From an uncultured bacterium (lineage in GTDB: Bacteria > CAYUVA01): a DNA stretch of 64,000 nt. The stretch lies in assembly GCA_964448115.1 (NCBI GenBank), contig CAYUVA010000002.1:62001-126000 (forward strand), in the 5' to 3' direction. Position 1 is the first letter of the stretch. The number at the start of each line of letters is the position of its first letter. The translations under genes and the position numbers were made by a program. The notes below the pieces were generated by a model. That model saw only the letters and a program-made list of their open reading frames with translations, was not told the DNA's origin and did not search any database. Shown in pieces: positions 21,331 to 39,859 of the stretch.

Positions 21331-23823
21331 TCACCCTTCTTCATCAGGCAGATAGAAATAGAATATTGATCCTTTGCCCGGTTCACTATTTGCCCAGACT
21401 TTTCCCCCGTGTTTTTCGATGATACGTTTGACTATTGCCAGCCCGACACCGGTGCCCTCAATTATTGGTTGTTCACTCAAGCGCTTGAAAACATCGAATA
21501 TCTTCTCGTGGAAACTCATATCGAAACCGATGCCGTTATCTTTTACAAAGTAAACCTTTTGTCCATCGATGATCTCACTGCCAACTTCTATGGTTGGATC
21601 CTGGTTCTGGTAGGTATATTTTATGGAGTTAGAGAGCAGATTTGCCAGCACTTGATATATCATCGAGACATCGCCGTAAGCATCAGGCATCTGGTTAACT
21701 ACGAATCGTACCTTTGTCTTGTAGCCCTCGATATCCTCGAATGCAGTGCGGAATAACATCTGCATATCGATCTTTGTATGTTTCAGCTTTTTCCTTCCAA
21801 GCCTGGAAAAGGCGAGCAGATCATCGATAAGTTTTCCCATTTTATTGGTATTTTCGCTTATCTTATCAAGCAGATTAGCAGCCTCGGGAGTCAGCATATC
21901 ATGGTATCTCTCGGTCAGTATATGGGCATACCCATTTATCGTGCGCAACGGGGTTCTCAGATCGTGAGAGATGGAGTATGAGAACGAATCTAGTTCTTCC
22001 ATGCTTTCTTGAAGCTGAATATTGCGCTGTGATAGATCTTCATTGAGTCTTCTTATCGCCTCCTCAGCCCGCTTTCTCTCGGTAATGTTCCTGGCGATGC
22101 CCAATATTGCCGGCTTTCCCTTGTATTCAAAAGGAGTAGCCACCACCTCGACATCGATTATAGAGCCATCAAATCTTACGAATTTCTCCTCAGCTAATGC
22201 AGCACTCTTACCGGTAGTCAGCATAGTCTTTACCCGGTTTAACACCATTTCTTTATAATCTGGATGCACGAAATCTAAAACTGGCATCCCGATCATTTGA
22301 TCTGTTGATTCCGCCCCCATAAGCTCTGCTCCCTGCTGATTGCCCAGGATCAGTTTACCCTCGGAATGGATGAATACAGCGTCCGGAAATATCTCGAACA
22401 AGGTTCTATATAAGTCCTCGCTCTGTTTAAGCCTTTCCTCTGCTTGCTTGCGGGAGGTGATGTCCCTTATTACAGCGAGAATCATATCCCGTTTGTCTAT
22501 CTGTGCTCTTTGTAAGCTCACATCCACCCAGATGGTCTCTCCGCTTTTATTATAAGCCTTTAGCTCGAATACCTGTGGTTCTTGGCTCAATGCCAATTCG
22601 ATTTTATTTCTCAACTCAGGGCAGTTGTATGGGTAAGATGTTCCCATTTCTTTTATAAAGCGAAAATCATAGAACTCCTGATGTGAATATCCAAACAGTT
22701 CCACCGCCTTTTGGTTACATTCTACAATCCTCCTTTTTTGGGGATCGTAAAGAAAAATGGCATCATTGGCTGCGTTGAATATGGTGTGATACCTTTGTTC
22801 TGATTCCAGCAAGGTTTCAGCCATGCGTAGGCGCTGCGCGTTCTCAATCTTGAGTCGTTCATTTATGGCGGCGAGCTCGGCTGTGCGCTCACTTACACGC
22901 TTTTCAAGGTATGCCTGGGTCTGTCTCAGTTCCTCCATAACCCTTTTTTGTTCTGTTATATCAATAGCGGTCGCCGCCATGTATCTGGGTTTGCCATCTT
23001 CATCATGTATAACCACGCCGCTCATTAACATTGGGAACTCGTGTCCATCTTTATTGACATGCCAGATCTCAGTAGCATCATAGCTGCCACGGCTACGAAG
23101 CTGTTTATTGAGCCTCTCCACTGTCTTCATTTGGGCACGAGAGTGAAAGATACTCAGATTCTTGCCGATTAGCTCATCACTTGAATAACCATGTATGCGG
23201 GCGAAATACTCATTAACATAGAGTAGATTTCCGTCCATATCTGAGATAGCCACGCCGAAGAGGGCATTATCGGAGATCTTCTTGAATTTCTGTAGCTCCT
23301 CGAAGTACCTCTTTCGCCAGGTAATATCCCTGCCCAGTGCGATGGAGCCTATGATATTCCCCTCTTTGTCAGTCAGGCTTCTCGAATGCCATGCGATTAT
23401 CTTCGTATCCCCATTCTTGCATATAATCTTTGTCTCCAGATCCTCTACCACTTGCCCCTTATTGATGATAGCCATTGCCTTGGAGAATATCTCCCTGCGG
23501 TATTCGGGATCAGGATAGAGCCACTCCCAGATCTTATCATGCCCGACTACTTCCTCTTTTGAGTAGCCGCTGATCTGCTCGGCAGCGCGATTCCAGATGA
23601 TAACATTGGCATTAGTATCGAGCACATCCATCCAGACATTGGCGTTCTCGATTACCGTCTCCCTGATCTGATCGAGCCTTTCCTGCTGCAACAGGCGATG
23701 CTTGAGTTCCTTGTTGAGCTTCTCTTTCTCCTTGAGTTGCTCACTCAGGCTAGCGACCTGTTGCTTGAGGGATTCTACAGTACCTGCAGTATGCTCGTTC
23801 TTGCTTTGATTGCCTTTACTCAT
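21331..23823 (-). CDS. Cytoplasmic multi-PAS sensor histidine kinase
   Basis: Four PAS/PAC repeats ending RDITWRK, DITEQK, RDITSRK, RNITERK; H-box SHDLRTP; N-box NLLSNSIKY; DNGIGF; GTGVGLAIV; no TM segment. Confidence 0.93.
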   Translation of the reverse strand: MSKGNQSKNEHTAGTVESLKQQVASLSEQLKEKEKLNKELKHRLLQQERLDQIRETVIENANVWMDVLDTNANVIIWNRAAEQISGYSKEEVVGHDKIWEWLYPDPEYRREIFSKAMAIINKGQVVEDLETKIICKNGDTKIIAWHSRSLTDKEGNIIGSIALGRDITWRKRYFEELQKFKKISDNALFGVAISDMDGNLLYVNEYFARIHGYSSDELIGKNLSIFHSRAQMKTVERLNKQLRSRGSYDATEIWHVNKDGHEFPMLMSGVVIHDEDGKPRYMAATAIDITEQKRVMEELRQTQAYLEKRVSERTAELAAINERLKIENAQRLRMAETLLESEQRYHTIFNAANDAIFLYDPQKRRIVECNQKAVELFGYSHQEFYDFRFIKEMGTSYPYNCPELRNKIELALSQEPQVFELKAYNKSGETIWVDVSLQRAQIDKRDMILAVIRDITSRKQAEERLKQSEDLYRTLFEIFPDAVFIHSEGKLILGNQQGAELMGAESTDQMIGMPVLDFVHPDYKEMVLNRVKTMLTTGKSAALAEEKFVRFDGSIIDVEVVATPFEYKGKPAILGIARNITERKRAEEAIRRLNEDLSQRNIQLQESMEELDSFSYSISHDLRTPLRTINGYAHILTERYHDMLTPEAANLLDKISENTNKMGKLIDDLLAFSRLGRKKLKHTKIDMQMLFRTAFEDIEGYKTKVRFVVNQMPDAYGDVSMIYQVLANLLSNSIKYTYQNQDPTIEVGSEIIDGQKVYFVKDNGIGFDMSFHEKIFDVFKRLSEQPIIEGTGVGLAIVKRIIEKHGGKVWANSEPGKGSIFYFYLPDEEG

Positions 23824-24071
23824 CGAGTCTTAGACCCTCAATGCCGTTTCAATAACCACCTTTGATAAAAAGACCTGACAAATACTATCCTTTTCACTTA
23901 AGCCTAATATAAAATATTCTTTATTCATTTTCAAGTTTATATGAAGTCCAGCTTGCTGCCAGAGGGAGTGATGAATACATCGATTAGAAATCAATGTTTC
24001 ATTCCAAGCCCTTCCGGCAGCCACAATTTACTAATTCATTAGTTGTAAAACATGCACATTTTAGATCCCTG

Positions 24072-24101
24072 TGCACTATAATGGTGCATGTTTATGATGC
24101 A
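24072..24101. promoter_or_regulatory. NtrC-type enhancer site(s)
   Basis: TGCACTATAATGGTGCA (24072-24088) matches the NtrC consensus TGCAC-N7-GTGCA; a weaker overlapping TGCA-N9-TGCA lies at 24085-24101; ~120 bp upstream of the predicted sigma-54 start site. Confidence 0.7.
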
Positions 24102-24172
24102 CATACAAACGAAACAGGGGGTTAGTATGAATAAAATGCCCATGAATCCTGCATTCTCTCTTTGCAACAAGG

Positions 24173-24189
24173 TTGGCATAACAGTTGCA
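24173..24189 (+). promoter_or_regulatory. Sigma-54 (-24/-12) promoter
   Basis: TTGGCATAACAGTTGCA has exact GG-N10-GC spacing with TGGCA and TTGC elements. Confidence 0.75.
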
Positions 24190-24200
24190 ATATTCATAAG

Positions 24201-24264
24201 CGACAATAGCCTAACCTTCCAATTCGACGCCGGTTGCCAAAAGGGTGACCGGCGTTAACTTTTT
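24201..24264 (+). ncRNA. Candidate sigma-54-dependent small RNA (~60 nt)
   Basis: Bounded by the -24/-12 promoter and an intrinsic terminator; no ATG within it; 5' tract GCCTAACCTTCC is anti-SD-like; 5' end inferred from promoter geometry. Confidence 0.5.
24226..24264 (+). terminator. Intrinsic terminator
   Basis: GACGCCGGTTGCC-AAAAG-GGTGACCGGCGTT, a 13-bp GC-rich stem including three G-U pairs, followed by AACTTTTT. Confidence 0.7.
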
Positions 24265-24303
24265 ACCAGACAACAGCCAACCGATAATTTTTTTTCAAAC
24301 CCC

Positions 24304-24332
24304 TTTACTTTAATATAATACTTTGCTAAATT
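24304..24332 (+). promoter_or_regulatory. Putative sigma-70 promoter for the giant exported protein
   Basis: TTTACT-N17-TAAATT with extended -10 TG (24324-24325), downstream of the terminator. Confidence 0.5.
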
Positions 24333-24460
24333 ATTGTCAATAATAAATTTTCTAAAACAGCCAAGAGTCTTTAGACATGATGAAAAAAACTCGATATCTC
24401 ATGATCTTGAGGTTTTCCCATAAATCTGTTATATTTATTCCTAAATAGGGAATAGTAAAA

Positions 24461-27400
24461 ATGAATCGAATATTCAATGTCATACTCCCATTGATGCTTT
24501 TAATGATGGTTATTTTTACTCTACCTGTTATTGGTATTCCCTACCACTCATCAGCTAACACAATGGTTGAGGGGATTGGATACTGGTGGGTCAAGCATCC
24601 GGCTTATCCCACCGAGATAATGATCATACCAGGAGACAATGACTGGGTGATGCATTACCTCGATGAGGGAGAAAACAGCCAGTTTCATCAAAGGGTTCAA
24701 GCCTGGGAACAAAGATACGGTCATAGGGGCTATCCATTCTGGATGACAAGAAAGGTTAGAGAGCAACTCGGAATGCCTCCTGAGCCTGATATTGTCGATA
24801 TTCCTTCGCTCCCATGTTCTGGTAAAATAATCTTTCCGGTTGATGGCGGCTGGCGTTGCTTAACCGATGACAGCCGAGCAAGCAGTAAATCTAAGGGTGA
24901 GGATTACATAAAAGTCAGAGTCTATGATTGGGCATCACAGGGCGCTAGTTGCCCAGTTTGTGCTGATGGAAGCCTCCCCGCCCCGGATAATATCGCTGAT
25001 GTTGTTATCGGGATCTGTTTTGCCAACACAGGGTCCTGGACATTTCCCCACCATAGCGAAATATGCCTTAATTGCTGCGATGGTGTAGAGCCGATACCTT
25101 TTACAGCCACTTATCCTACTTTAGATCATGTTTCATTGCTCGATGTCAGGGTCCAAGCAGTTGATTATGATGTTTATTATCCCGATGAGCCTCCGGGTAC
25201 TCCTACCCCCACGCCAACCAAGGCACACGCCTGTTGGAGCCATCGCTCGCATTACAATGTGCCTGCTGGGGGACTAAGCAAAGCCTGGCGTAACCTGAAT
25301 TTCAATCTCTCGCCACCCTGTTTTGATCCATTGCCTAATATTACCTGTCGGGCTACTCCTAAAATAAAGGTGGAATACGAGGTTTGGTATGAGGATAACG
25401 GGATTGATGACCCTCAATGGATAGAACATCCTAACTCTGGTCAGTGGTACAATACCTTCACCTTCGTATGGAGCGAGGTACAAGATCGAGCCGGCATTCA
25501 AAAAAGCGAGCTTCATATAAGTTCTGACACCACCTTCAATATGTCTGATGAGAAGATCTACACCATACCAGGCAACGGCACCCAACAGACGGTCGCATCT
25601 GGTGATACTTTAACTTCGGGTAGTTGGTATTTTGCGGTACGCACCAGGGATAATACAGGGCACTGGAGCAATTACAGGCATGCTGACCATACTAAATTCA
25701 ACTTCGATATCACTCCACCTTATCACACCAGCCCGACCATATTGCTTGGCGGTAATGAGATGACAGAGGATCAGCAGCTCTATGACTGGGGTAATGGCGA
25801 TGCTTATATCCACATGGTCAACTCTGTGGATGATCACAGCGGTTTGGCATATTTTCAGTATGATATCGATGATGACCCATCTGATCAGCCGCAATATAAT
25901 GACTGGGCCGATAACATAACCGTCTCTTTCCCGAATTGGATGGATGATACTGGATATTACACTATCTGGGTGCGCATTGTCGATAATTTAGGTAATGATG
26001 CTGTTTACTCGGATTACATTTACTGTGATACCTCGGATCCTTCAGTATCTAAGCCCTATTTTGCCGGCGCCATTGACCTGAACGCTATTGTGTTCTTTTC
26101 CAGCCCCTATGATGAAGGATCCGGCGTAAAGGAGGTCTATTACGAGATCCTTGAGGATGATATCCTTGAATATTGGGGAATCACAGGTGCCGATGGCAAT
26201 ATCAGCCTTAATGTCGGTTATCATGGCAGAACCTACAAGGCTATGATGCGCCCCAAGGATAATTCGGGGCGCCAGGGAAACGAGGTATGGAGCGATCCGG
26301 TTACACTCAATTGGATACCAGCTCAGCCGAGTGATACTTTTGTCAGCTATATCGATAATGGAGTGGCAATATCCTGGACTGATAATTCGACAAACGAGAC
26401 CAACTTCAGACCAGAGAAAGGATTAGTCGGCATGGGTTGGTTTGAGATCGGGCAACCGACCGCATCCAGCTATGATTATTTCTGGCAAAGCGATGATAAG
26501 GATCGCAGATTTCGGTTTAGGGTTCGTGCCTATCGAAACTATGGTGGCGGTGAATTCTACAGCGATTATGACAACTACCTCGGTTGGTTTTATGGACCCC
26601 CTTCAGCGCCGACACAGCGAGATCCGGAGCCAGAGCCAACCGCTATCAATTGGCTCTGGTGGGACAATTCCCTGCACGAGAGCGGATTTCGCATTGAGGT
26701 AGATGGACTAGGCGAAGCGACCGTCGCCGGCAACGAGACAAGCTACCGGTGGGACGGGCTGGAGCCGGATCATCAATATACTGCCACAATATTTGCTTAT
26801 ATGCACCATGTTGGACAATACCCCGGGGATAGCAACCCTTCAGAGTCTAAAACGGTTAATACGCTAGCGAATATACCCCAGGCGCCGCTGGTGCAGAATG
26901 TGCCCCAGCAATACGAGACCCTTCTGGTCGATGTCCTCAATGCTGATCCAGCCAATCCCCCATACACAAAGTATTGTATTCTGTGCGATGAAGAGGGCAA
27001 GTATGCTGATCAAAACGGAACCCTTCAGACCTATCCCACCTGGCATACGATATCTGAGTGGAATACGATTGGAGCAAAGGTTAGAGGACTAGCGCCTAAT
27101 AAGCTTTATCATATTAAGACCAAGGCGAGTAACCAGGAAGGAGTCCAGACCGACCCCAGCGAACCCGCTTCAGCTTATACAGCCTGCCAGGTGCCTGGAT
27201 TCATCGAGGTAAAAGAGCATATCAACTATCCGGATACGCAGATGACCTTCACTATCGACCCCAAGAGCAATCCGCTTGACAAGAATACCACTTATGTGGT
27301 GCGTGTCGAGATCTCACCATCAGAATTCCGCTATGTGAACAAGAACCAGGGAGTGCTTCAGTTTGAGAATGAACATACGGACCTAAACAGCACTAGGGGT

Positions 27401-30400
27401 AGCCATAGCGAATTCGGTGGATTCAGCGGCTTCAGGCTTATCGGATTACAGCCCAATCATCTCTATACCTTCTTTGTCAAGGCGTATAACTTCGAGGATC
27501 TCAATACTTCCTACAGCCTTTGCCTGGATAGCTCATGCTATGATTGGACTTACGCAGCCATCCCTGGCGCACCGCTGGCTTATAATTATCCATCAGATCC
27601 CACCAGGCTTAATGTACTAGTGATTCATGGCACCGGCAATCCAGCAGACACCCAATATACTATCCAATTCGAGCAAGATGCCATCGGCACCAAGTATGTC
27701 GATTATAGCGGCTACCTGGTCGGAGAGATGACCTGGGGGGACAGGACCACCTGGGGCGGTGATTCGGGTATCGATGTGCTTGGATTAGAGCCTGCGACCA
27801 CCTATCGCATAAGCTGTTTTGCCAGAAACCGTATTGGCGATATAAGCGGGGAGAGCCAAGAAACCTACCAAACAACCACCTTCTTCACAGCAACGCCGAC
27901 GGTAACTTCGACCGAGATTCCCACAGCCACGCCATCAGCCATACCAACTAGCACACCGAGCAACACACCTACCGGCAACCCAACCTTTACGGCAACCGCC
28001 CTCCCCAGCAACACGCCGAGCATGACGCCAAGCGTAACTCCCTCAGCAACTCCTAGCGCCACGCCGACTTCGTCAGCGACTCTTACGCCCACCGCTACCG
28101 AGACAGCAACGATGACAGCGACACCCTCCAACACCCCCAGCGCTACGCCGAGCCTGACCCCAACTGATACTCCCACCAACACGCCAACCCAGACCGCTAC
28201 CGACCTGCCCACAGCCACCATGACAGCGACCCCATCGGCGACCTTGACCTCTACGCCATCTGCCACGCCCACCCATACTTTAACCGGCACCCCGACCGCA
28301 CTCCCCACCAGCACCCCGACTGCCACGGAGACAGACCTCCCCACGGCAACCAACACGCCAACTGCCATACCAAGCACCACCCCCACCAACACGCCGAGTA
28401 ACATTCCATCAACAACTCCGAGCCTTACTCCTACCAACACTAAGACCGCTACTCCGACCTTCACGAATACGAGCGTCCCCACCAGCACTCCGAGCTTTAC
28501 ACCAACGCTGACCGCAACTACCTCGCCGTCATCGACCAGCACCGCCTCACCTACATCGACTGTATCATCCACTCCCACAACCACACCTTCGCAAACGCCT
28601 ACCCCCACGGAGACCCCTTGCTGGATGGATGATCCCTTGGAATACCCACCAGGCAACGACACGCCAGAGAATGCAATCTTTATCGATACCGGTGGCAGTT
28701 CCATTCAGCAACTCTTCTGCACCGAGTCAGACAGCGACTGGCACAAGTTCATGGCATCGACCTCCATGCTATATACATTCTGGACTTCCGACCTAGGGAA
28801 CTCGGTGAGGACGCGACTGCGCCTATATGATTCGAGCGGATATTTGCTTTTACTGGATGCAACGCCACTACCGGGTCAGGGCGAGGTGCAAGCGCAGATG
28901 ACTTATGCTCCAAGCGGGATCTATTACTTGGAGATGCTTCCAGCTCAAGGCTCTGTCTGGGGGCATGGCGCCGATTACAACCTGCAGGTCAAGGGAATCA
29001 CGTTCACCCCGACCATAACCCCAACCCTAACGCCGACACTTACAAGCACTCTGGTGCCGACCTTAACGCCATCAACGACCCCAACCCTAACGCCCACCAG
29101 CACACTAACACCAACCGGAGCGCCAACTTCCACACCAACCCGCTCCCCATCGCTAACTCCGACAAACACTGCCACCCCCTCAACGACGCAAACTCGAACC
29201 CCCACCTTGACTCCCACCAACACCGAGACTCAGACACCGACAGGCACGCCAACCACAACCGGGAGCGCAACACCGACCAACACGCGTACCTTAACCCCGA
29301 CTTCGACTCCAAGCCATACCCCTACTCTCACTCCCAGTGCTACCGAAACTGCAACACCGACAAACACGATGACGCCGACCGCCACCATGACCCCCTGCAA
29401 GGATGTCGATATATGGGAGCCGGATAACAGCCCTCTGAATCCGCCTGAGATCGGGGCAGAACAGGGCGAGACCCTGCATTATTTCTGCCCGCCACCACCT
29501 GGTGATATCGATTGGTCATACTTCACATCATCAGCTAACACCTCTTATATACTGGCGACTTATGATCTCGGTACTGATGCAGATACTTACATGTATTTAT
29601 ATGATGGATTCCTGAATTACATAGATGAAAGCGACAACAACACCAGTACTGGCGGCAGAGAATCGACCATCCGCTTCACCGCGCCGATAAACTGGTTCTA
29701 TTATGTCAAGATAACCAGCGCTGATGGCAAATGGGGCACAGATGCCTATTATATGTACCGCGTCTTAGCCATGACCGCTACGCCTACACCCACTTTCGTT
29801 CCTACCTTGACTCCAAGCAACACGCCCACCTCAACTCCATCCCCATTACCTACCCAGACTCCGACTGCAACTCCAAGCGCAACTATGACCACAGTCCCGA
29901 CCGCCACCCATACGCGCACGCCGACTTACACCCCAACAGCCACGCCGAGTGCAACCATGACCGATGTTCCCACCAACACGCCGACTGCAACCTCAACACT
30001 AACTCCCACCTTTATACCAAGCTCCACCGTCACAGCTACCCCAACCATAACCGCCACCACCGCTCCCAGCTCGACCCCGACCAGTACCCAAACCACGCTA
30101 CCAACCAGCACCCCCAGCCCAACCCCCACTGGATCGTTCACCGCCACCGATACGCCGACCCTGACGCCAAGCGCCACCGCGAGCAATACGCCGAGCATTA
30201 CGCCCACCTTGACCGTCACCGCTACGCCGAGTGCAACCTTCACCGTTGGTCCAGCCCCGATAATCACACCTGAGCCACCATTCACCGCCGGCACTTGCAA
30301 TACAGTCTGGTGGAGCGATCAGAGCTCCTATAACGCTGGCGGTTATTATATAGAGGCTGATTTGAACGGCGATTTCACCAGCATAATCGGAGCTTCGGGA

Positions 30401-31483
30401 TGGATCGAGGACTTGAATTACATGTTCTGTAGCCTTTTGGACGGGAAGGCCTACTACTACAGGGTAAAATTCAGGGATATATGGCTGAACGAGAGCGACT
30501 GGTCGATGCCGACCTGGTCTAGACAGGATGCATCGGCACCGATTACAAGTGTTCTGTCGCTGCCCGATATGGTGCGAGAGCAGATCCTTGAGATGCCTTT
30601 TGAGGCTTATGATATAGTATCTGGTGTGAACCACATCAACCTTTATTACAGGCACGATGCTAAGGGTGATTGGTTGCGATATGATGGCAAGTATTCGCTA
30701 TCCCCTATTTTCTTTGATATCGATCAGGCACAAGGCTGGGGCAGCTATGAATATTACACGGTCGGAATTGACAATGTCGGCAATGCTGAGGCTGCACCGC
30801 TAGTGCCCGATGCCAACACCGTTTTCATACCGCCGGATACAGCAACGCCGACAACTACGCCGAGCGCCACCTTCACCGCTACACCCACAAATACAGCAAC
30901 CCCCACAGCCACGCCAACATCGACTGATATTCCTACCTTGACTCCAACCAGATCGCCTACTGGAACCGCCACAGATATCCCCTCGCATACACCGACTCCC
31001 ACAGCCACTCCAAGTAAGACCTTCACTGCAACACCGAGCGACACTCCGACCATCATCCCCACGGTTACCGAGACGCCGATCCCATCGACCACACCAACGC
31101 TAACGCCATCTGCAACACCGACCTGCCCCCCGACATTAACTCCGAGTCTTACGCCGACCGCCACCGAGGTCATTCCGCCTCGCATAATAGCCGGTGGTTA
31201 TATGAGCACAGTTATCGACTCCGCTTATGGGGGGAGACTTTACCTATATATCGTTGCTCAGGATCGCTATGGCCATGCAGCAGCCACGGTCGAGGTTTAC
31301 ATGGACGGAGTCGGACTGGGCGTGTATTTACCTATCTTGGATGAGGCTAGCGGTTTATTCGGTTTCCAGGGATTGCCTGTTGCTGCCGGGACTCCAGCCG
31401 GGTCGCTATTGCTTGAGTATCTTGCCCGGGACGATCACCACATACCCAGTGCGTTGTTCCCATACTTAGTGATTAAGGAGTGA
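24461..31483 (+). CDS. Giant exported multidomain protein: Cys-rich N-terminus, FN3/Ig-like domains, two PPC-like domains, four Thr/Pro/Ser-rich linkers
   Basis: Signal-peptide-like start; FN3 motifs [63 protein letters not shown] and [11 protein letters not shown]-like modules; TPT/TAT/SNTP repeats. Confidence 0.85.
27870..31170 (+). repeat. Four coding low-complexity Thr-Pro-Ser blocks (approx. 27870-28620, 28997-29399, 29771-30260, 30830-31170)
   Basis: Protein-level xTPT/xTAT/xTPS 4-residue periodicity; codons vary, so there is no exact DNA tandem array. Confidence 0.85.
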
Positions 31484-38170: not shown

Positions 38171-38266
38171 ATTGTGATTCATTAGTACCTTCGTGGCTTT
38201 GCGGTTATAATATATGATATATACGAAAATGGAGCTTGATCATATTTAGGTTAGGGGAGTGAACCG

Positions 38267-39859
38267 ATGAAGGTTGACCTGGCTGGATTCAATATTGATA
38301 TGCAGATCTTACGGGATATAGATACGCTATTGGATAACATCCAGCATGAGTTATCTCGGCTTGGCGAATCGAGCGATTCCCTTAGAAAACAGCGCTCCAA
38401 AATGCAGGAGTTGCTTCAGGCAGTTGATTCCTATCAAAGTAAAACCCATTATACTCCAGAGACGCTCTCAGCCTCCTATGCCCGCATCAGTCGAGATCCA
38501 GCTTCTATCCCCGAACTTAGAGAAATAGCCAGGGAACAGGTCGAACAAGCCCGGAAATCCAACCGTAACATAGTCTTCGGCATGGGGCATCATTCCATAG
38601 CAGAACATGCGGTCTTCAACTTCGATATAATGGGGATCTCCCGGCTAGCCATCGAGGCTCTGCAATCGCACCGCCTGGCTAGCTACACCGAAAAATCGCA
38701 AAGATACATCACTCTCCGGGGCGACTATCTTGTTCCTTATGAGTTTCAAGGCGATGGGAGAGAGCTGTTCGAGCAAACGGTAAAAAAGCAAAATCAGCTC
38801 TATGCCCTTGCCTTGCCTGTGCTTGAAGAACATCAAAGAAAACGGAATACGGTGCTTGCCAAAACAAAGAGCGGCATGAGAACTATCGAGGGCTGGGCAA
38901 AGGAGGATGCTCGTTATGCGCTATCATTGGCTACCCAGACGCAGGTGGGAATGACCGCTAATGCACGAACCGTCGAGTACATGATACGAAGGATGCGATA
39001 CCATCCCCTCGATGAGGTGCGACAGCTCGGTGAGCAACTTTACGGTCAGGTAAGAAAGGTCGCACCATCACTGATACTATTAACAGATCCCGAGCAATTC
39101 AAGCAACAGTTCAATGCCGAGATCGATGACAGCTTCATCTGCGATGCTCCTTCCGAGACCAAGGCAATGGTGGCTGGAGAATTATCTAGCCTGCCTAAGT
39201 TGAAAAATGAAACCATCGAGGAGGTTAGACTTATAGACTTCGATAGGCTTGCCGATCGTAAAGTCGCAGCAGCCATTATCTTCAATAACAGCGACATTAG
39301 TTATTATGATGCCCTGGAGATGGTGGATGCCATGGGAGCTGAAAAGATCATCCACCAAGCGCTGGCTAGATTATCGAAGCATGATGCTCCTTTTCGTGAA
39401 TTCGAGCTTCCCTGGTTTCTCTACGAGCTGGTGGTCAGTGCCACCTGTTTTGCACAACTGAAAAGACACCGAATGATGACCCTGTTGGCTCAGGGCTATG
39501 ACACCTCTTTAGCCATAAAGATACCGCCAGCAGTGGTTGAGGCTGGGTTGGCTCAACGCTTCATCGATAATGCACATGAGACTGAGCAGGCTTACTATAA
39601 ACTGGCGGAGATCCATCCCCAGGCTGCGGAATATATACTCACCAATGGGCATAGAAGACGGGTAGTGGTGGGCGCCAATGCCAGGGAGCTATACCATATT
39701 GCCCGGCTCAGGATGGATAGTTACGCCCAGTGGGATATCCGCGCCATAAGCTCGCAGATGCTCGCCGAGGCGAAGAAGGTCGCCCCGACAACCATGATGC
39801 TCGCTTGTGGAAAGGATAACTTCGATGAGCTGAAGAAGAGACTTTACGAGCAATGTTAA
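38267..39859 (+). CDS. thyX: FAD-dependent thymidylate synthase, tandem double-Thy1 form
   Basis: MGHHSIAEHA, SHRLASYTEKSQRY, EDARYAL, ANAR; second copy AQLKRHRMMT...ANARELYHIARLR...AQWDIR. Confidence 0.9.
   Translation: MKVDLAGFNIDMQILRDIDTLLDNIQHELSRLGESSDSLRKQRSKMQELLQAVDSYQSKTHYTPETLSASYARISRDPASIPELREIAREQVEQARKSNRNIVFGMGHHSIAEHAVFNFDIMGISRLAIEALQSHRLASYTEKSQRYITLRGDYLVPYEFQGDGRELFEQTVKKQNQLYALALPVLEEHQRKRNTVLAKTKSGMRTIEGWAKEDARYALSLATQTQVGMTANARTVEYMIRRMRYHPLDEVRQLGEQLYGQVRKVAPSLILLTDPEQFKQQFNAEIDDSFICDAPSETKAMVAGELSSLPKLKNETIEEVRLIDFDRLADRKVAAAIIFNNSDISYYDALEMVDAMGAEKIIHQALARLSKHDAPFREFELPWFLYELVVSATCFAQLKRHRMMTLLAQGYDTSLAIKIPPAVVEAGLAQRFIDNAHETEQAYYKLAEIHPQAAEYILTNGHRRRVVVGANARELYHIARLRMDSYAQWDIRAISSQMLAEAKKVAPTTMMLACGKDNFDELKKRLYEQC

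Follow-up and report, generated by a model that had tools for sequence, protein, structure and literature searches.

Non-coding RNAs that depend on sigma-54 are an established kind. NrsZ of Pseudomonas aeruginosa depends on RpoN, and the Qrr sRNAs of Vibrio are about 100 nt long, Hfq-dependent and encoded beside luxO. In the parts of the papers drawn on here, NrsZ is described as an NtrB/C-induced, nitrogen-dependent and processed sRNA (PMC4253122), and the Qrr sRNAs as activated by enhancer-binding proteins and LuxO/sigma-54 dependent (PMC10162802). The account of the sigma-54 regulome of Desulfovibrio vulgaris Hildenborough, in the portion used here, includes four non-coding RNAs, several of which lie beside activator genes (PMC4641369).

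The locus reported here lies in a 64,000-nt stretch (hereafter, the window) of the genome of an uncultured bacterium (3.98 Mb, 86 contigs, 94% complete), which is the sole member of its order and phylum in the species set searched. The spacer at 23824-24460 is 637 nt long, placing it among the longest 5% of the 2019 crude intergenic gaps in the genome, and its G+C content is 35%, compared with 48% genome-wide. An earlier note on this DNA had described in the spacer an NtrC-type enhancer, a sigma-54 promoter and a terminator with no protein gene, and had read them as a candidate nitrogen-regulated sRNA. The motifs that it listed are all present at their positions and in that order. The features of the spacer and its surroundings are listed below, in window coordinates unless a contig is named.

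21331-23823, - strand: histidine kinase gene with 4 PAS domains, the divergent neighbour of the spacer
24052-24057, + strand: half-site ATGCAC, 19 nt upstream of the main palindrome
24053-24082, + strand: sigma-70-like promoter TGCACA-18-TATAAT (10/12, consensus match only), overlapping the palindrome, with a possible second start at about 24090
24072-24088, no strand: candidate activator (bEBP) site, the 17-bp palindrome TGCACTATAATGGTGCA, centred 94 nt ahead of the -24 element's first base
24085-24101, no strand: weaker overlapping palindrome TGCATGTTTATGATGCA, with 2 mismatches to TGCAC-N7-GTGCA, 81 nt before the -24 element
24127-24258, + strand: 43-aa ORF with GGGGG at 24117-24121, 5 nt before the ATG (56 aa from a start at 24088)
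24174-24189, + strand: sigma-54 -24/-12 promoter TGGCATAACAGTTGCA (12/12), with GG at 24175-6 and GC at 24187-8
24200-24264, + strand: predicted RNA of about 65 nt, its 3' end placed by the T run
24209-24224, + strand: C/U-rich single-stranded stretch GCCUAACCUUCCAAUU, a candidate seed with a putative function
24209-24220, + strand: GCCTAACCTTCC, within the C/U-rich stretch
24226-24256, + strand: terminator hairpin of 13 pairs (8 G-C) with a loop of 5
24260-24264, + strand: terminator T run TTTTT, after AAC (tail UUAACUUUUU from the last G-C pair)
24292-24319, + strand: sigma-70-like promoter TTTTCA-16-TATAAT (10/12, consensus match only), between the terminator and the giant gene
24461-31483, + strand: gene for a giant secreted protein of 2340 aa (fn3/PPC), downstream of the spacer
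C3 about 121717 (- strand) and C9 about 7159 (+ strand): paralogs of the giant gene, with open frames of 2239 and 1448 aa

We read this unit as the gene of an enhancer-dependent RNA of about 65 nt without an ORF, in which 26 unpaired, C/U-rich nt at the 5' end are followed by a terminator and which acts in trans, and give this reading a probability of roughly one half. One of 12 activators, encoded elsewhere in the genome, would bind the palindrome or palindromes at 24072-24101 together with the half-site at 24052-24057, loop to the sigma-54 holoenzyme at 24174-24189 and open the promoter. Transcription would start near 24200, a position based on the usual distance between the -12 GC and the start site, and would stop at the hairpin and T run near 24264. 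The product of about 65 nt would carry CCUAACCUUCCAAUU in its unpaired 26-nt 5' part, followed by the terminator hairpin, and would most likely act by trans pairing with mRNAs at G/A-rich ribosome-binding regions. It would be switched on jointly with an orphan gene for a 92-aa protein on contig 28, whose box stands one base farther from the -24 element. We infer the start and end of the RNA, efficient termination, the action in trans and the targets.

The motifs and their rarity, the common box, the fold, and the rpoN and activator genes were established by computation. For the promoter, every GG-N10-GC site of the genome was scored against TGGCAYR-N4-TTGCW, and the 8.5% of the genome without ORFs of at least 120 aa was taken as crude non-coding DNA. 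A score of 12/12, as in TGGCATAACAGTTGCA, was reached by 10 sites genome-wide, and 7 of the 10 fall in the crude non-coding fraction, where about 0.3 are expected by arithmetic. The start TGGCATAA, present in TGGCATAACAGTTGCA, is common to 8 of the 27 listed intergenic sigma-54 candidates. The genome encodes rpoN (Sigma54_DBD, 209 bits), the presence of which the earlier note had proposed to check, and 12 sigma-54 activators (Sigma54_activat, E <= 1e-64). Because the 12/12 motif is enriched in non-coding DNA and both rpoN and 12 activators are encoded, the sigma-54 promoter at 24174-24189 is very probably real. Its GG/GC spacing and flanks, the presence of rpoN and activators, and an activator site within about 70-200 bp upstream are those of a sigma-54 promoter, and it lies 86 bp past the palindrome, for which about 85 bp had been claimed. 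At the other intergenic candidates the next ORF mostly starts less than about 150 nt away. A terminator-like hairpin before the next ORF of at least 50 aa was found at 1 of the 27, namely at the 24174 promoter.

The perfect TGCAC-N7-GTGCA box occurs once in the genome, at the 24072 site, versus about 3.8 expected, and one-mismatch copies number 69 versus about 114 expected. There is thus no broad regulon of this box, because the perfect copy is single and the one-mismatch copies are below expectation. Among the 26 other intergenic sigma-54 candidates, a one-mismatch box so placed was found only at C28:30579 (contig 28), where TGAACTAAAATGGTGCA lies upstream of the intergenic promoter TGGCATCAAAATTGCA (11/12). 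The distance from the box centre to the -24 element there is 94 nt, or 95 nt by a strand-aware scan and an anchored comparison, the latter being 1 nt farther than at the 24174 promoter, and a half-site ATGCAC likewise precedes the palindrome, by 20 nt. With 70 sites of at most one mismatch in 3.98 Mb, about 0.002 coincidences of a box within +/-2 nt are expected over 26 promoters by arithmetic. The recurrence of box, spacing and half-site is good evidence that one activator would serve both promoters.

The contig-28 promoter, in the region C28:30230-30760 (- strand), drives the gene for the 92-aa protein, which has no Pfam family and for which a homologue search returned only the protein itself. 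This gene closes a cluster whose products are an HdrD-like CCG protein, a 4Fe-4S protein, an NrfD/cytochrome-c fusion and a receiver-kinase-receiver trio (two receiver proteins and a PAS kinase), and a PAS-containing activator gene lies about 8 kb from it.

The palindrome at 24072-24088 does resemble the E. coli NtrC box TGCACCAnnnTGGTGCA, as the earlier note had held: of the 14 specified positions in the part of the source used here, 13 are matched at this site and 12 in the contig-28 copy (PMC8743547). It differs from the E. coli case in that the likeness of the site identifies neither the protein nor the signal here, and in that sites of this type are under-represented in the genome. None of the 12 activators reaches the cut-off of the NtrC equivalog TIGR01818 (558.6 bits), the best scoring 452.4, so that the proposed check for ntrC came out negative. 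The AtoC, NtrX or PrdR models score the 12 activators as high as or higher than NtrC does, none above its own cut-off. Ahead of the match at each of the two glnA loci, the 1-1.4 kb scanned holds no sigma-54 motif scoring at least 9; the glnA genes both show TTGACA-type (sigma-70-like) promoters. An amtB (Amt ammonium transporter) gene was not found in the 94%-complete genome, and the box neighbours are redox and signalling genes, those surrounding the 92-aa orphan gene on contig 28. Because there is no NtrC equivalog, no sigma-54 motif at glnA, no amtB found and a redox and signalling company for a box of which the genome holds a single perfect copy, the nitrogen label was dropped, and nitrogen or NtrC control of the unit is not supported.

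Folding of a 67-nt stretch gave -23.8 kcal/mol (z -4.05), and none of 200 shuffles was as good. The first 26 nt of the predicted RNA (GCGACAAUAGCCUAACCUUCCAAUUCG) are essentially unpaired, with one weak 2-bp contact, and the hairpin follows. The earlier description of about 25 nt with a C/U-rich part, ahead of a 13-bp stem with a U-tract, is borne out, with AAC between stem and T run. Some read-through into the giant gene is possible, because AAC separates the T run from the stem. In a scan for hairpins of dG <= -15 kcal/mol with T5 within 4 nt, 137 sites were found genome-wide, 56 of them non-coding. Of the 56, 27 lie no more than 150 nt from where a same-strand ORF of at least 120 aa ends, and 29 are orphans. 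In stability the hairpin at 24226-24256 (-23.3) ranks second among the 29, and only 2 of the 56 are this stable. Most of the strong orphan terminators among 12 inspected by eye from the DNA, untranslated, come after reading frames of less than 120 aa.

The same scan permits some observations on the genome at large. Canonical strong intrinsic terminators are few, with 27 at most 150 nt from the end of an ORF of at least 120 aa. Two repeats surfaced in it as orphan terminators. At C5:113720-113810 (- strand) a unit of about 42 nt occurs twice head-to-tail, each copy ending in a G/C hairpin and a T run, and at C66:3850-4000 the head-to-tail unit measures about 63 nt (...GGGGGGGAAAGGAAGGAGGGCAACCACTAAGC...) and lies beside an N run, again with G/C hairpin and T run ends.

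The predicted transcript at 24200-24264 contains no ATG, and its lone GTG is internal to the hairpin. The unit thus has its own promoter and its own intrinsic terminator with no ORF inside the predicted transcript, as is asked of an sRNA gene, the overlapping 43-aa frame starting upstream. The earlier view of a unit without a protein gene stands for the sigma-54 transcript, which has no start codon preceded by a ribosome-binding site, and fails for the DNA as a whole, where the 43-aa ORF, which had gone unmentioned, overlaps it. Rfam 15 (Qrr included) gave no match at the gathering score in the whole window. At E <= 10, five matches (E 1.1-9.5) were obtained in 23800-24500, none of them on the + strand over 24200-24264, and the Rfam/Infernal check proposed by the earlier note accordingly placed the RNA in no known family.

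Relatives of the unit were sought in other genomes and in metagenomes. A DNA search of 40 other genomes returned short matches at chance level only (best E 0.003 over 30 nt). Scanning metagenomes with the N-terminal 500 aa of the giant protein gave 39 pattern matches and no confirmed relatives. Among sequencing runs, three from a single study were listed, all of DNA, one being a possible source. A metagenome scan for a sigma-54 motif followed by N{10,40} and CCTAACCTTCC gave 9 loci, about the number expected by chance, none with the palindrome or the hairpin. One metagenome locus (L043) has CCTAACCTTCCAAT in common with the unit. Another, unrelated metagenome contig (L040, 601-760), found only through a common 11-nt motif, carries a sigma-54-like motif and, after it, C/U-rich sequence, hairpins and GGGGAGGA...TCCTCCCC with a T run, which looks like a terminator; it may be a sigma-54 sRNA of another organism.

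A second orphan sigma-54 unit was found in the genome itself, at C12:72880-73290. It has a perfect palindrome TACCGATATCGGTA followed by TGGCATAATGCTTGCA (12/12; C12:72962), lies about 250 nt past the end of an activator gene and has no ORF of at least 50 aa within 500 nt. Its transcript would contain CCUCCAAUC twice and a third CCUCC; CCUCCAAUC has 45 copies genome-wide on both strands. Two of these CCUCC-type copies lie in hairpin loops, one in a 7-bp hairpin followed by ACUUUUU. A strong GC hairpin lacking a T run and a 30-aa frame with a weak ribosome-binding site are present as well, and the unit has no Rfam match. The presence of this unit suggests that sigma-54-driven C/U-rich RNAs may be a habit of the organism.

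Pairing with start regions was assessed by duplex energies against 5890 crude start regions, 655 of which reached <= -16 kcal/mol, compared with 946 +/- 265 in 20 shuffles, so strong pairings are not in excess of those of shuffled seeds. The longest uninterrupted duplex, 12 bp including one G-U, covers the GGAAGG belonging to a gene for 715 aa at C20:37661; this best candidate is not significant, and a length of 12 is also reached by 4 of 5 shuffles. The C/U-rich 5' part could pair with ribosome-binding sites of the GGAAGG type, but no target is supported by these scans. Pairing with the start regions of the giant gene, the kinase and thyX is unremarkable. The earlier note had pointed to the 8-mer AGGTTAGG at the thyX ribosome-binding site (38248-38255; the ATG follows 12 nt later, at 38267) and had allowed that it may be chance. 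This caution was apt: by arithmetic, any 8-mer should turn up about twice in a 64-kb window when both strands are counted, and the thyX duplex energy is at only the 15th percentile of the 5890 start regions. The thyX gene itself (38267-39859) encodes 530 aa, roughly double the usual ThyX length, and the ThyX model matches it in two stretches; it may be duplicated or fused. None of Hfq, ProQ and CsrA, looked for as RNA chaperones, turned up in the genome, which is 94% complete.

A wider model can be drawn from these observations. Enhancer-binding proteins of this organism would control a few chaperone-independent sRNAs that mimic the anti-Shine-Dalgarno sequence, the units at 24200 and C12:72962 each having its own palindromic enhancer and an exposed CCU(U)CCAAU, and the 24200 unit would in addition belong to a two-promoter regulon with the 92-aa orphan by a heterodisulfide-reductase-like redox operon. 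We offer this model tentatively and regard it as rather unlikely. If it were true, the unit would be an RNA switch responding to redox or energy state, and not to nitrogen.

The giant gene offers another role for the same promoter, which would serve 24461-31483, with the hairpin as a conditional terminator in a 261-nt 5' untranslated region that is overcome by a protein or an RNA. The promoter is directed at that gene, no ORF of at least 50 aa starts between them, and the T run is interrupted. Precedents within the genome are consistent with such an arrangement: the sigma-54 candidate at C1:146932 has a 316-nt leader, and another sigma-54 promoter, at C4:103717, precedes an ORF with a pilin-like hydrophobic N-terminus, that is, a surface structure, which we take to be a type IV pilin as read from the DNA by eye. 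Against these points, only 26 nt, unpaired, precede the hairpin, leaving no room for a sensor, and neither fold offers an antiterminator pairing for the 5' arm; the terminator persists when the supposed leader is folded over its full 276 nt. Even at E <= 10, Rfam gave no match to a leader, a riboswitch or an ANTAR-type RNA. The giant protein, which has one fn3 domain and a weak PPC match with the rest unassigned, has two paralogs (46% identity over the first 400 aa), both of which lack the unit: their spacers are short, hold no promoter-terminator pair and, when the three spacers were aligned, had nothing in common except two 8-mers. The 196 nt from the terminator to the giant-gene ATG have 28% G+C and contain sigma-70-like matches. 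The own sigma-70-like promoter that the earlier note had assigned to this gene exists as the 10/12 match at 24292-24319; as a promoter it is less certain, being a consensus match of a sort common in this spacer (6 versus 3.0 +/- 1.7 in shuffles). We therefore consider control of the giant gene by a conditional terminator unlikely, and a separate RNA gene, independent of the giant gene, is favoured because of the 26 nt before the hairpin, the leader fold without competing pairing, the paralogs without the unit and the AT-rich stretch with sigma-70-like matches. As a separate observation, the AGGGAA of the giant-gene ribosome-binding region lies within a 7-bp hairpin, UAUUCCU-AAAUA-GGGAAUA (24427-24447), in the predicted fold of the spacer, which could limit translation of the giant gene.

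A protein product would change the meaning of the hairpin, which would then end a transcript made from the sigma-70-type promoter at 24053-24082 and carrying the 43-aa ORF, the sigma-54 motif being an internal second promoter or chance. The codon score of this ORF (0.107) is intermediate: true coding segments score 0.175 +/- 0.093, which puts it at their 23rd percentile, and spurious ORFs -0.042 +/- 0.118, among which it would rank in the top 10%. Its GGGGG resembles sites before other genes, e.g. cagggggataaagataATG, an identical 56-aa protein is already a called gene in a protein collection, and short frames likewise precede most of the strongest orphan terminators among the 12 inspected by eye. 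The protein nevertheless has no relatives in 5.8 billion clusters (1 match, itself), no usable look-alike in a protein atlas and no membrane-length hydrophobic stretch, and its last 10 codons must double as the terminator stem. A 12/12 sigma-54 motif would be expected by chance about 6e-5 times in a 130-nt ORF by arithmetic, and here it comes with a matching upstream box besides. The sigma-54 transcript cannot encode the 43-aa ORF, because its start at 24200 falls inside the frame. A small-protein gene is on these grounds quite improbable as the explanation of the unit. A longer sigma-70 transcript and a short sigma-54 transcript could coexist, and an activator occupying the -10 box could silence the sigma-70 promoter at 24053-24082, by analogy with what has been described for NtrC at glnAp1. 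That three consensus look-alikes simply co-occur without function in a long AT-rich spacer is very improbable: the spacer, at 637 nt, is in the top 5% of the 2019 crude gaps and the motifs were first picked by eye, but the 12/12 motif, the terminator hairpin and the promoter-terminator pairing (1 of 27) are rare, and the contig-28 promoter has the same box one base farther out.

If the stand-alone sigma-54 small RNA is real, it would be the first regulatory RNA, and its box the first enhancer-site regulon, proposed for a lineage without sequenced relatives in the collections searched. It would also be an added case of sRNA control driven by sigma-54 beyond the Proteobacteria-type models. No principle would be changed, sigma-54-dependent sRNAs being well documented. 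The practical value lies in a corrected label, neither nitrogen nor NtrC, and in a concrete pair of putatively co-regulated promoters.

Compared with the described systems, the unit most likely makes, as far as its sequence tells, a small regulatory RNA whose kind is already known. Like NrsZ, it is a candidate sRNA behind an NtrC-box-like site. NrsZ is longer and is processed into repeated modules, whereas a single module of about 65 nt is predicted here, with no NtrC equivalog and no nitrogen genes under the box, and the unit is not a member of that family. With the Qrr sRNAs it has in common an enhancer-dependent promoter and, as predicted here, a short transcript that exposes a seed and ends at an intrinsic terminator; it differs from them in having no Qrr match in Rfam at E <= 10 and in that no Hfq was found in the genome. 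The non-coding RNAs of D. vulgaris, as they appear in the portion of the regulome paper used here, differ from the unit in that there is no sequence relation (no Rfam match) and in that the neighbour here is a histidine kinase with four PAS domains and not an activator gene. The unit resembles them in its upstream activator site, its -24/-12 promoter, its short ORF-less transcript (predicted here) and its setting in a free-living, anaerobe-type genome with many activators, and the orphan unit on contig 12 follows an activator gene, as several of the D. vulgaris RNAs do.
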